Shown: positions 10,937-15,345 of the stretch, piece by piece | Layout of the letters: every line of letters starts with the position of its first letter | Position numbering within the stretch: position 1 is the first letter of the stretch | Sequence record: OM937123.1 | DNA length: 39,173 nt | Strand: one strand, 5' to 3' | Source of the DNA: Escherichia phage CY1 | Notes under the pieces: generated by a model | Told to the model about the DNA's origin: nothing | What the model saw: only the letters and a program-made list of their open reading frames with translations | Database searches by the model: none | Translations under genes and position numbers: made by a program

Positions 10937-10966
10937 TTGACAAGATGTAACGACTTAAAGTAGTAT
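10937..10966 (+). promoter_or_regulatory. Host sigma70-type early promoter (T7 A3-like): TTGACA, 18-bp spacer, TAGTAT
   Basis: TTGACA at 10937-10942 and TAGTAT at 10961-10966. The surrounding sequence resembles the T7 A2/A3 region (TTGACAACATGAAGTAA...). Confidence 0.55.
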
Positions 10967-11140: not shown

Positions 11141-11155
11141 TGAGAGGATATAACT

Positions 11156-11665
11156 ATGGAACGTAACGCTAACGCTTATTACGAACTGGTAGCTGCAACT
11201 GTGAAAGAATTCAACGAGCGCATCCAGTACGACCAACTGACTCAAGATGACGACTACAGCGATGCACTGCATGAAGTCGTAGGCGGTCAGGTTCCGCACT
11301 ATTACCACGAGATTTTCACTGTAATGGCTGCTGATGGTATAGGCCACGAGTTTGAGGACTCTGGGCTGATGCCTGAGACCAAGGACGTAACGTGTATACT
11401 GCAAGCTCGCATCTATGAGGCGCTGTATAACGATGTGCTTAACAGCTCGGATGTTGTCTGGTTTGAGGCTGAAGAGAGCGACGAAGAGGATGAATATTGG
11501 GTAGTTGACGCTAAAACAGGCGCAATAATTAAGCAAGCTGTGTCACTTGATGTCGCTACTGCATGTGCCAAAGATCACTATGCGATAGGTCGCCACCTGA
11601 AGGTCGAGGACATCAACGATAAAGTAGTGTTCGACCCTGCGGCTGAAGAGGGGGGCTGCGAATAA
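11156..11665 (+). CDS. ocr: Ocr-like DNA-mimic anti-restriction protein (gene 0.3 homologue) with a ~55-aa C-terminal extension, 169 aa
   Basis: [43 protein letters not shown] matches T7 Ocr ([43 protein letters not shown]); acidic tract follows. T7 Ocr is about 117 aa. Confidence 0.85.
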   Translation: [169 protein letters not shown]

Positions 11666-11820
11666 TGGTAACTTACGGTCTATGCCAGCACCACGTCACC
11701 TACGCCCGGCTTATGGTCAAGACCGGGCAGTTAACCCACGATGCGGCTATGCGTCACCTGAAAGTGGTCTACGAAGTACGAAAACATATGCACGACAGTT
11801 TGCACGCTGAGGACAAGTAA
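11665..11820 (+). CDS. Hypothetical early protein, 51 aa (gene 0.4 position)
   Basis: ATG overlaps the ocr stop (TAATG); + strand early region. Below the ORF-track cutoff; my own translation. Confidence 0.35.
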   Translation: MVTYGLCQHHVTYARLMVKTGQLTHDAAMRHLKVVYEVRKHMHDSLHAEDK

Positions 11821-12663: not shown

Positions 12664-15345
12664 ATGAGCGTCATCTCTATTGACAAACACGACTTCTCTG
12701 ATGTGTCGAACGCCATTGAGCCGTTTAACCTGCTGGCTGACCACTATGGGCAAGACCTTGCAGTCAAACAGCTTCAGCTTGAGCACGAGGCATACACTGA
12801 AGGCGAGCGACGTTTCATCAAGAACCTTGAGCGCCAGACTGAGCGCGGGGAACTGGCAGACAATCAGGTCGCCAAGCCTTTGATGCAGACTCTGGTCCCT
12901 AAGATTGCACAAGCCGTTAGGGAGTGGCATGAAGGGCCGGACGGGAAGCTGTCAACCTCTCGTCCTAGCGTAGCGTTCACCATGTTGAGCACTGAAGAGA
13001 AGGCCATCAAGGACCGCTCTCTGCGCATCTCCTGCGAGTCTGCTGCGGTTATCATACTGAAGGTCATTCTCTCCAAGCTGGTCAAGCCTGAAGGGATACC
13101 GATTACACCGATGGCCTCCGCGATAGGTCGCACACTTGAAGATGAAATCCGCTTCGGTAGAATCCGAGACAAGGAGCAGGAGCACTTCAAGAAGGCGATA
13201 GCTGAGAACCTGAACAAGCGAGCTGGTGCATCCTATAAGAAGGCCTACATGCAAGCGGTTGAGACCTCCATGCTGGAGCAAGGACAACTGGAAGATGCGT
13301 GGGGTACTTGGAGTCCGACCGAGGCGGTACACGTTGGCATCAAGATGCTTGAGATTGTCATACAGTCTACACAACTGGTCGAGCTTAAGCGTTATGGTGC
13401 TGGCAATGCAGCGGCTGATGTTGAGATGGTCCACCTGTCAGACTTCTGGGTCAAGAAGATGGCACAACGTGGATTCAGCCTTGCGGGTATCGCGCCAGTC
13501 TATCAGCCTTGCGTCGTTCCACCTAAGCCGTGGACGGGTGTCGTAGGCGGTGGGTACTGGGCCAAAGGTCGCAGACCCTTACCATTGATTCGCTTAGGGT
13601 CTAAGTCTGCGGTGGCACGTTACGAAGACGTATACATGCCTGAAGTCTATGACGCTGTCAACATCATCCAGAATACACCTTGGAAAGTGAACAAGAAGGT
13701 TCTGGACGTGGTGAACATGGTCGAGAAGTTGAACAACACGCCTATTGATGACATCCCTCAGATGGAGCCACTGAAGCCTGAGGACTATGCTGGTGAGACC
13801 GAGGAAGAGCTTAAAGCGTGGAAGAAAGCTGCGGCAGGTATCTATCGCCGAGAGAAGGCCAGGCAGTCGCGCAGGTTGTCACTGAGCTTTATCGTCAACC
13901 AAGCGAACAAGTTCTCTCAGTTCAAGGCCATCTGGTTCCCGTACAACATGGACTGGCGTGGTCGCGTCTACGCTGTGCCGATGTTCAACCCTCAGGGTAA
14001 CGACATGCAAAAGGGTCTCCTGACTCTGGCAGTCGGTAAGCCTATTGGTGCTGACGGTTTCAAATGGCTGAAGGTCCACGGTGCAAACTGTGCGGGTATT
14101 GATAAAGTAACCTTCGAGGAGCGCATCAAGTGGGTGGAAGATAACCACGACAACATCATGGCTGCTGCTAAGGCACCAATGGATAGCATTGAGTGGTGGG
14201 GTAAGTTAGACTCTCCGTTCTGCTTCCTAGCGTTCTGCTTCGAGTATGCTGGCGTAATGCATCACGGATTGTCTTACTCCTGCTCGCTGCCGATAGCTTT
14301 CGATGGGTCCTGCTCTGGGATTCAGCACTTCAGCGCGATGCTTCGTGACCACATCGGTGGACACGCAGTAAACCTGACGCCATCCGGTAAGGTCCAAGAC
14401 ATCTACCGCATTGTGTCTGACCGCATTGAGGAGGAACTCAAAGTCCTGCTGGTTAACGGTACGGACAACGAGATGGTGACTCACGAGGACAAGAAGACTG
14501 GTGAGATTACCGAACGTCTCAAGCTGGGGACACGAGAGCTGGCCCGTCAGTGGCTGACTTACGGTATGTCACGCAAGGTCACTAAGCGTTCAGTCATGAC
14601 TCTGGCCTACGGGTCGAAAGAGTATGGCTTCGCAGACCAAGTGTACGAAGATATAGTGATGCCAGCGATTGACTCAGGGTCTGGCGCTATGTTCACTGAA
14701 CCCAGCCAAGCATCTCGCTTCATGGCTAAGATGATTTGGGAAGCTGTTAGTGTGACCGTAGTTGCTGCGGTTGACGCGATGAAGTGGCTTCAAGGTGCTG
14801 CCAAGCTGCTGGCTGCTGAAGTAAAGGACAAGAAGACTGGTGAAATCCTGAAGCCTTGCCTTCCTGTACACTGGGTCACACCTGATGGTTTCCCTGTCTG
14901 GCAGGAATACCGCAAGAAGGATACCACTCGTCTGAACCTGATGTTCTTAGGGTCATTCAACCTTCAGCCTACCGTCAACAGAGGTTCGAAGAAAGAGCTG
15001 GACAAGCATAAGCAGGAGTCAGGCATTAGCCCGAACTTCGTCCACTCACAAGATGGTAGCCACCTCCGCAAGACTGTAGTCCACACGCACCGCAAGTATG
15101 GTGTGATGTCCTTCGCAGTGATTCACGATAGCTTCGGGACCATCCCGGCTGACGCTGAGTATCTGTTCCGTGGAGTCCGTGAGACAATGGTTGAGACCTA
15201 CCGCGACAACGATGTGCTGCTTGACTTCTACGAGCAGTTCGAATACCAGCTTCACGAGAGCCAGCGCGACAAGTTGCCTGAGCTTCCGAAGAAAGGTAAA
15301 CTGAATATCGAAGACATCTTGTCTTCAGACTTTGCATTCGCTTAA
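12664..15345 (+). CDS. gp1: Single-subunit DNA-directed RNA polymerase (T7 gene 1 homologue), 893 aa
   Basis: Extensive identity to T7 RNAP: FGRIRD, PCVVPPKPWTG, WFPYNMDWRGRVYAV, FCFLAFCFEYAG, DGSCSGIQHFSAMLRD, HDSFGT and the C-terminal FAFA. Confidence 0.97.
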   Translation: MSVISIDKHDFSDVSNAIEPFNLLADHYGQDLAVKQLQLEHEAYTEGERRFIKNLERQTERGELADNQVAKPLMQTLVPKIAQAVREWHEGPDGKLSTSRPSVAFTMLSTEEKAIKDRSLRISCESAAVIILKVILSKLVKPEGIPITPMASAIGRTLEDEIRFGRIRDKEQEHFKKAIAENLNKRAGASYKKAYMQAVETSMLEQGQLEDAWGTWSPTEAVHVGIKMLEIVIQSTQLVELKRYGAGNAAADVEMVHLSDFWVKKMAQRGFSLAGIAPVYQPCVVPPKPWTGVVGGGYWAKGRRPLPLIRLGSKSAVARYEDVYMPEVYDAVNIIQNTPWKVNKKVLDVVNMVEKLNNTPIDDIPQMEPLKPEDYAGETEEELKAWKKAAAGIYRREKARQSRRLSLSFIVNQANKFSQFKAIWFPYNMDWRGRVYAVPMFNPQGNDMQKGLLTLAVGKPIGADGFKWLKVHGANCAGIDKVTFEERIKWVEDNHDNIMAAAKAPMDSIEWWGKLDSPFCFLAFCFEYAGVMHHGLSYSCSLPIAFDGSCSGIQHFSAMLRDHIGGHAVNLTPSGKVQDIYRIVSDRIEEELKVLLVNGTDNEMVTHEDKKTGEITERLKLGTRELARQWLTYGMSRKVTKRSVMTLAYGSKEYGFADQVYEDIVMPAIDSGSGAMFTEPSQASRFMAKMIWEAVSVTVVAAVDAMKWLQGAAKLLAAEVKDKKTGEILKPCLPVHWVTPDGFPVWQEYRKKDTTRLNLMFLGSFNLQPTVNRGSKKELDKHKQESGISPNFVHSQDGSHLRKTVVHTHRKYGVMSFAVIHDSFGTIPADAEYLFRGVRETMVETYRDNDVLLDFYEQFEYQLHESQRDKLPELPKKGKLNIEDILSSDFAFA

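Follow-up and report, generated by a model that had tools for sequence, protein, structure and literature searches.

Ocr, the product of gene 0.3 of phage T7 (gp0.3), is the textbook DNA-mimic anti-restriction protein, now also known to set off suicide systems that bacteria keep as a back-up. In its rod-shaped dimer, the C-terminus of T7 Ocr lies at the distal end of each monomer, as in the 1S7Z structure. AriA of the PARIS system binds the Ocr monomer via F54 and L82 in a narrow, positively charged pocket, and the same two residues belong to the dimer interface (PMC10802264). EcoR22I and Ronin are further Ocr-triggered suicide systems in Escherichia coli (bioRxiv 10.1101/2023.04.06.535777), and several Ocr-sensing systems of this host select on Ocr (PMC10802264; bioRxiv 10.1101/2023.04.06.535777). 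Here, the gene 0.3 homologue of Escherichia phage CY1 (OM937123.1) was analyzed. The window, meaning the whole stretch of 39,173 bases, is a complete, circularly permuted T7-like podophage genome with its nearest DNA relatives in Kayfunavirus (K1F-like). Its gene 0.3 encodes a long form of Ocr, in which the core is followed by an acidic linker and a small C-terminal domain, termed the module below. Long-form Ocr is already widespread in public databases and routinely annotated as Ocr, and the protein itself is not new; the CY1 protein is ordinary for its genus, with an uncharacterised extra domain. The gene and its parts are as follows.

11156 to 11665, + strand: gene 0.3 homologue, long-form Ocr of 169 amino acids plus stop (open reading frame list; ATG at 11156, stop at 11663-11665)
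11156 to 11467, + strand: predicted DNA-mimic core of Ocr, residues 1-104, with the class-B motif DVVWFE at its end (the Pfam match, residues 10-97, corresponds to 11183-11446)
11468 to 11494, + strand: acidic linker AEESDEEDE, residues 105-113 (alignment of homologues)
11495 to 11638, + strand: C-terminal module, residues 114-161, YWVVD...VVFDP (AlphaFold2 and conservation)
11639 to 11665, + strand: acidic tail AAEEGGCE, residues 162-169, plus stop (sequence)

The Pfam match to PF08684 (ocr) has an E value of 2.9e-29 and 102 bits against a cut-off of 25, PHROG 2568 'ocr-like anti-restriction' matches the product with E 6.4e-52, and the T7 Ocr structures 1S7Z and 2Y7C are matched by phmmer with E 1.7e-23. 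A sequence-only reading of this DNA had proposed an Ocr-like N-terminal part for the open reading frame, which these matches bear out. Residues 19-94 are 57.9% identical to T7 Ocr (tblastn), and the residue numbering of the core agrees with that of the T7 protein. The 31 aligned long-form sequences all have F54, I81 and L82, and both PARIS AriA contacts, F54 and L82, are intact in the CY1 protein. The core has a net charge of -16 and an isoelectric point (pI) of 4.19, and the whole protein a net charge of -27 and a pI of 4.20, compared with -28 and 4.05 for T7 Ocr. The best Protein Data Bank (PDB) match of the full-length structural model in Foldseek is Ocr chain 8zek_B, with 52% identity over 87 columns; the E value of 0.049 is modest, a consequence of the low-confidence core model. 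On these matches, residues 1-104 are assigned as a bona fide Ocr DNA-mimic core, and the family function, inhibition of type I restriction-modification and of BREX by occupation of the DNA groove, is predicted for the CY1 protein.

Beyond the core, the CY1 protein departs from T7 Ocr. In a census of tails covering 55 IMG/VR loci together with phage records, two classes follow the conserved ILQARIYE. Class A, found in T7 and SP6-like phages, is a long helix D, and class B, found in Kayfunavirus, Przondovirus, Vectrevirus, Berlinvirus and others, consists of a DVVWFE-type motif with an acidic tail; the extension is confined to class-B cores. The CY1 protein does not have the canonical single-domain architecture of T7-type Ocr: a class-B, truncated helix D (ALYNDV..DVVWFE) is followed by an extra folded domain. 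The sequence-only reading had aligned about 115 residues with T7 Ocr, acidic tract included. Homology to T7 Ocr stands, yet it is reliable only to about residue 94-97; residues 98-113 (SDVVWFE and the acidic tract) are the class-B tail, which takes the place of the distal half of T7 helix D, and the tract is analogous to that of T7 rather than aligned with it. The same reading was right that the extension lacks a counterpart in T7 Ocr (117 amino acids). It comprises the last ~56 residues, of which the segment quoted there corresponds to residues 123-169.

Structure prediction with AlphaFold2 gives the module as a 48-residue beta-beta-alpha-beta-beta domain, with strands at 114-118 and 124-129, a helix at 131-143 and further strands at 148-151 and 157-159. 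Its predicted local distance difference test score (pLDDT) is ~90 in the full-length model and 89.8 when the module is modelled alone, with a predicted template modelling score (pTM) of 0.73, so that the extension is predicted to fold autonomously. The linker has low pLDDT in the full-length model and a length of 0 to ~25 residues among homologues. According to column entropy computed over 119 long forms, it is also the most variable segment, with the highest mean value (0.97), and its variability in length and sequence points to a flexible tether. In the module, conservation covers the hydrophobic core, a near-invariant stretch G145-x-H147-x-x-V-E-D-I-N-D-x-V-V-F-D-P161, Y114-W-V-V-D118, T121 and G122. 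Variable columns (123-124, 126-127, 130, 132-133, 135, 140-141, 143-144, 146 and 148-149) lie in strands 2 and 3 and on one face of the helix; the beta3-beta4 hairpin is conserved, and exposed positions evolve fast. Two subtypes of the K1F-type module, of which the K1F version reads YEAIACAKELYEEGFHMQ, differ mainly at these variable columns, on the exposed helix and the beta3 face. In Nei-Gojobori estimates on seven K1F-type genes, the pooled ratio of nonsynonymous to synonymous differences per site (pN/pS) is 0.19 in the core and 0.48 in the module (pairwise values 0.06-0.80). By these estimates, the module is under purifying selection, and its rate of evolution is two to three times that of the core.

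The distribution of the long form was followed through homologous proteins and phage records. All but one of the 120 best homologue clusters carry the module, in proteins of 162-179 amino acids; the exception, P0095, is described below. When the last 56 residues were used as the query, 70 phage records were retrieved, always in frame within the Ocr gene and including gp0.3 of the type phage K1F. The extension is not the unusual feature that the sequence-only reading had implied. As a norm for the wider family it holds only locally: it is common among K1F-like Kayfunavirus, but only 80 of the 570 Ocr-matching phage records cover at least 80% of the CY1 protein, and ~86% of Ocr-bearing records are without the module. 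It is missing from T7, from SP6/K1E-like phages and from Klebsiella phages among these 570 records. Where the core is at least 80% identical (~107 records), about 70-80 are long-form. Furthermore, a divergent module occupies the same position of Ocr in Kosakonia phage Kc166A (183 amino acids), Stenotrophomonas phage IME15 (173) and Aeromonas phage PZL-Ah152 (172). These three modules can be aligned with the K1F-type module from end to end, and profile-profile comparison supports their homology to it (hhalign probability 84.5%, E 6.9e-6, 52 columns); the module extends beyond Kayfunavirus and is older than this genus. CY1 and IME15 share 76% identity in the core and 31% in the module. In IME15 (L014, 1-114 and 462-983), the gene labelled '0.3', at the usual gene 0.3 position, is annotated as an S-adenosylmethionine (SAM)-dependent methyltransferase, and the long-form Ocr lies further downstream, directly before the kinase gene; IME15 may carry two anti-restriction genes in one early region.

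Searches for the module outside Ocr were made at the level of sequence, profile and fold. A profile hidden Markov model run against 1.84 billion representative proteins found no free-standing module, its only three matches being long repeat proteins that sum sub-threshold repeats. The module pattern was absent from all 185,579 bacterial and archaeal species scanned, each represented by one genome. In metagenome contigs, a pattern scan returned three loci: two intact genes for long-form Ocr and a third locus with a disrupted frame. This third locus (L073 509-677, in the 39,475 bp contig CYGL01000127.1) is in frame only from FHMQVEDINDNVVFDPAAAEEDCE on, corresponding to the C-terminal part of the module, pointing to a frameshift, genuine or introduced by sequencing, within a long-form Ocr gene. 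Word-indexed searches with the Kc166A and IME15 modules retrieved only P0124, an internally deleted Ocr remnant, and P0125, an N-terminally truncated gene call. Neither Pfam nor PHROGs matched any of the three module types; for the CY1 module, the best Pfam hit was PepSY (E 0.14, 13 residues), and a PDB profile search ranked botulinum toxin (E 0.07) and TFIIH p8 (E 0.5) highest, all of them insignificant. Fold searches with the module gave weak, generic matches only and no significant relative of known function; the nearest known folds considered were those of the T4 Dmd antitoxin, ClpS and the L7-L12 C-terminal domain. Across these searches, the module is seen only attached to Ocr, and appears neither alone nor fused to other proteins. 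No paper describing or testing the extra domain turned up in a literature search, nor any experiment on a long-form Ocr, the K1F genome paper lying outside the coverage of that search.

Two kinds of metal site were considered and dropped. An EF-hand-like pattern, D-x-N-x-N-x-V-x-D, in the beta3-beta4 hairpin breaks down in the modules of IME15 and Kc166A. In the case of a Cys/His site (C137, H147 and C168), the Cys positions vary by module type; the tail Cys, as a possible ligand, is also present in module-less short forms, and the overlapping ribosome-binding region of the gp0.4 gene explains its conservation better.

The module is also lost in nature. In the DNA of short class-B forms, linker and module are missing by a clean in-frame loss with junctions in GA(A/G)GAGGA repeats. 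The short class-B proteins retain the tail of the long forms, as in LS3, which ends in ...VVWFEDEEDCER, and in L020 to L025. In CY1, a pair of direct repeats brackets the linker and the module.

11464 to 11476, + strand: upstream copy of the direct repeat, 13 nucleotides, TGAGGCTGAAGAG (repeat search)
11638 to 11650, + strand: downstream copy, TGCGGCTGAAGAG, identical to the upstream copy at 12 of 13 positions (repeat search)

The two copies are in frame, at a spacing of 174 nucleotides or 58 codons, and slippage between them would yield essentially the natural form of 110 amino acids. In a neighbour-joining tree of the first 312 nucleotides of the core, built without bootstrap support, the long forms of the Kayfunavirus clade do not separate from the short ones but alternate with them (K1F groups with a short form, L071 with L025, and L017 with L003), a pattern that fits repeated loss of the module.

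Several further rearranged genes were observed at this position. In Salmonella phage STP-SP7 (L008 578-961, 127 amino acids), a T7-type class-A helix D (...DQIVDEYLETLED) is combined with only the last strand of the module and the tail (TSDSVVFDHAAAEDCE), and the junction reads ...LEDTSDSVVFDHAAAEDCE; this partial remnant can only be a deletion or recombination product between tail classes. P0095 (167 amino acids; 7 contigs, the longest 38,886 bp) has the Ocr core and the module up to ...AIGRHLK, followed by the C-terminal end of the gp0.4 homologue, AVYEGHKRIHDSLHAEDK. It is a natural in-frame fusion in which the equivalents of ~11156-11600 are joined to those of ~11765-11820, with loss of the last two module strands and of most of gp0.4, and the deletion apparently used the RHLK(V/A) microhomology common to both genes. 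P0124 (57 amino acids; L011 3001-3174, L012 3001-3174 and L013 2550-2723) occurs in Kc166A-like phages from three metagenome samples; almost the whole Ocr core is deleted, and the first 11 residues, MERNTNAYYDL, lead straight into the second half of the module. Ocr seems to have been lost naturally here, an outcome that selection by Ocr-sensing defences would be expected to produce. Lastly, the IMG/VR contig L054 (37,555 bp) has at 906-1328 a T7-type Ocr open reading frame of 140 amino acids with an unrelated, non-acidic C-terminus after ...NEYLEE, which suggests a further deletion fusing gene 0.3 to a downstream gene.

Taken together, a tentative preference, held with rather less than full conviction and short of being probable, is given to the reading that the module is a tethered tip domain acting in cis with the Ocr dimer and altering which host complexes are able to engage Ocr. 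A tip domain that modifies Ocr's own interactions is favoured because the module occurs only in cis with Ocr, on a flexible linker and at the C-terminus. The module would sit at the distal ends of the DNA-shaped Ocr rod, where it could make protein contacts or block them sterically. As one option, it may add grip on restriction or BREX methyltransferase complexes; as another, it may hinder the capture of Ocr by abortive-infection sensors such as PARIS AriA, EcoR22I and Ronin, and such hindrance is plausible. The benefit would depend on the host, which is proposed as the reason why the module is both maintained and often lost. A more specific version makes the module a device of counter-counter-defence, namely a tethered shield or adaptor with which Ocr still blocks restriction and BREX while it escapes or inhibits its own sensors (PARIS AriA, Ronin and EcoR22I-type suicide). 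This version is considered rather unlikely. If it were true, fast surface evolution and repeated loss would record an arms race of the third level, consisting of defence, anti-defence, sensor and anti-sensor domain.

Several points weigh against the tip-domain reading. The core is poorly modelled in the full-length AlphaFold prediction (mean pLDDT 71, pTM 0.43, from a shallow alignment), and for this reason the model does not define where the module lies with respect to the mimic surface. The search of representative proteins returned no long-form Ocr either, the Ocr clusters in that library presumably standing as short forms. In Foldseek, many uncharacterised phage proteins of 45-90 amino acids have a similar fold, with template modelling scores of at most 0.74 and a best E value of 7e-3. 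The absence of standalone modules is therefore weaker than it appears: free-standing relatives may escape sequence searches, since the module is small and fast-diverging. Regarding the tree, which is short and lacks bootstrap support, recombination could produce the interleaving without many independent deletions. Short class-B forms persist widely, and the module is therefore not needed for the basic function of Ocr. Moreover, the proposed mechanism is drawn from distribution and evolution only.

Among the alternatives, the one that survives best is a second, independent effector joined to Ocr, such as a small anti-defence or host-takeover inhibitor (a Dmd-like antitoxin mimic, say, or an Acr-like binder), with a target unrelated to that of Ocr. 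Its source would be an early phage gene that once stood free and was captured. A role in cis is favoured over such a fused effector, which is judged possible but unlikely, since the module is seen only together with Ocr, can be dispensed with and has an exposed surface that evolves fast.

A structural or stability add-on is improbable. The module could cap the tip of class-B Ocr, which lacks the long distal helix of T7, promote oligomerisation or shield the acidic tail from proteolysis. Yet class-B Ocr of Przondovirus, Vectrevirus and Berlinvirus is often module-less, so that the core does not need the module, and a linker of variable length and low confidence speaks against fixed packing on the core. 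In addition, the fast-evolving exposed positions of helix and strand around a conserved core resemble an interaction surface more than a passive cap.

Extended DNA mimicry, in which the module would lengthen the negatively charged rod, let Ocr imitate more base pairs and block additional DNA-binding surfaces, is disfavoured and thought very unlikely, because the charge of the module is not conserved. The K1F-type and IME15-type modules are acidic, with a net charge of -9, and the most conserved surface stretch is an acidic hairpin, VEDIND / VEDDTS. In CY1, however, the net charge is -1 (pI 6.0), and this near-neutral subtype is the commonest, so that charge is not the conserved property; nor can a globular domain on a flexible linker keep a fixed phosphate-like spacing. 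The final alternative, a sequencing or assembly error that removed the true Ocr stop codon, as the sequence-only reading had allowed for, has nothing in its favour and is excluded by the in-frame architecture in 119 of the 120 best clusters and in 70 phage records, together with purifying selection and a confidently predicted fold.

The surroundings of gene 0.3 are those of the Ocr family. All large open reading frames of the window lie on the + strand, and the gene order (a host-type promoter candidate, gene 0.3 as the first early gene, gp0.4, RNA polymerase) is as in the family, with a T7-type RNA polymerase open reading frame downstream at 12664-15345. The features next to the gene are listed below.

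10937 to 10966, + strand: sigma-70-like promoter candidate, TTGACA-18-TAGTAT (consensus match only, 10/12), ~190 bp upstream of gene 0.3
11142 to 11148, + strand: Shine-Dalgarno-like GAGAGGA, read from the sequence, 7 nucleotides before the gene 0.3 ATG
11665 to 11820, + strand: homologue of T7 gp0.4, 51 amino acids (BLASTP against T7 gp0.4)

In T7, the early promoters A1-A3 precede gene 0.3 at a distance comparable to that of the candidate promoter. The gp0.4 homologue is 37% identical to T7 gp0.4 over 41 residues (BLASTP, E 5e-6), and homologues at the same position carry PF26807 (Phage_T7_GP04). Its start overlaps the stop of gene 0.3 (TAATG, 11663-11667), matching the stop/start overlap of T7, where genes 0.3 and 0.4 share base 1278, and the gp0.4 homologue is predicted from this arrangement to be translationally coupled to gene 0.3. 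The DNA of the acidic tail holds a purine-rich, Shine-Dalgarno-like run for the gp0.4 homologue. In relatives, the conserved EEDCE tail of Ocr corresponds to a GAGGA motif ~9 nucleotides before the ATG of the next gene, and we infer that the conservation of this tail largely reflects constraint from the gp0.4 ribosome-binding site. As to annotation, the gene 0.3 product is an exact match to the deposited Escherichia phage CY1 protein P0001, which carries the name 'protein kinase'. This name is wrong, since Pfam and PHROG give Ocr. The same name stands on the Ocr homologues of ZH4, LM33_P1, IME205, IME335, PST_H2 and some T7 records, and the misannotation has propagated among Ocr records.

The matched long and short alleles that nature provides on nearly identical cores are a ready-made experiment. 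Should the module change the target range of Ocr or its evasion of sensors, phages would be seen tuning a conserved anti-defence protein with the mimic surface untouched, and the module would be relevant to the therapeutic Kayfunavirus phages K1F, LM33_P1 and CLB_P1. If it has no measurable effect, it is simply a lineage-typical domain addition.

Comparison with known systems places the CY1 protein as follows. With T7 Ocr (gp0.3; 1S7Z, 2Y7C, 8ZEK) it shares the homologous core and its numbering, F54/L82, the position as first early gene and the acidity. T7 Ocr differs in its long distal helix D, its end at 117 amino acids and the lack of a counterpart to the last ~56 residues; in CY1, helix D is shortened and replaced by DVVWFE, the acidic linker and the 48-residue globular domain. 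The short class-B Ocr proteins (LS3, PE3-1, K1E gp3, kpssk3 and RN5i1; 108-119 amino acids) have cores up to 90% identical, the DVVWFE motif, often the EEDCE tail of the long forms and shared downstream DNA, and differ in that linker and module are gone by clean in-frame deletion at repeat junctions. The Ocr proteins of IME15, PZL-Ah152 and Kc166A conserve the W, the G, the helix Ala and Tyr, G-x-x-x-x-VED and the final Pro of the module, whereas module identity is 31-40% against 74-77% for the core, and their tails are without EEDCE. The CY1 protein belongs to the long-form Kayfunavirus group that includes SH3, LM33_P1, CLB_P1, Ro45lw and K1F. K1F gp0.3 (YP_338090.1) has identical architecture and the same length of 169 amino acids, with 88% identity in the core and 67% in the module, and is distinguished by its module subtype on the exposed helix and the beta3 face and by a module charge of -9, compared with -1 in CY1.
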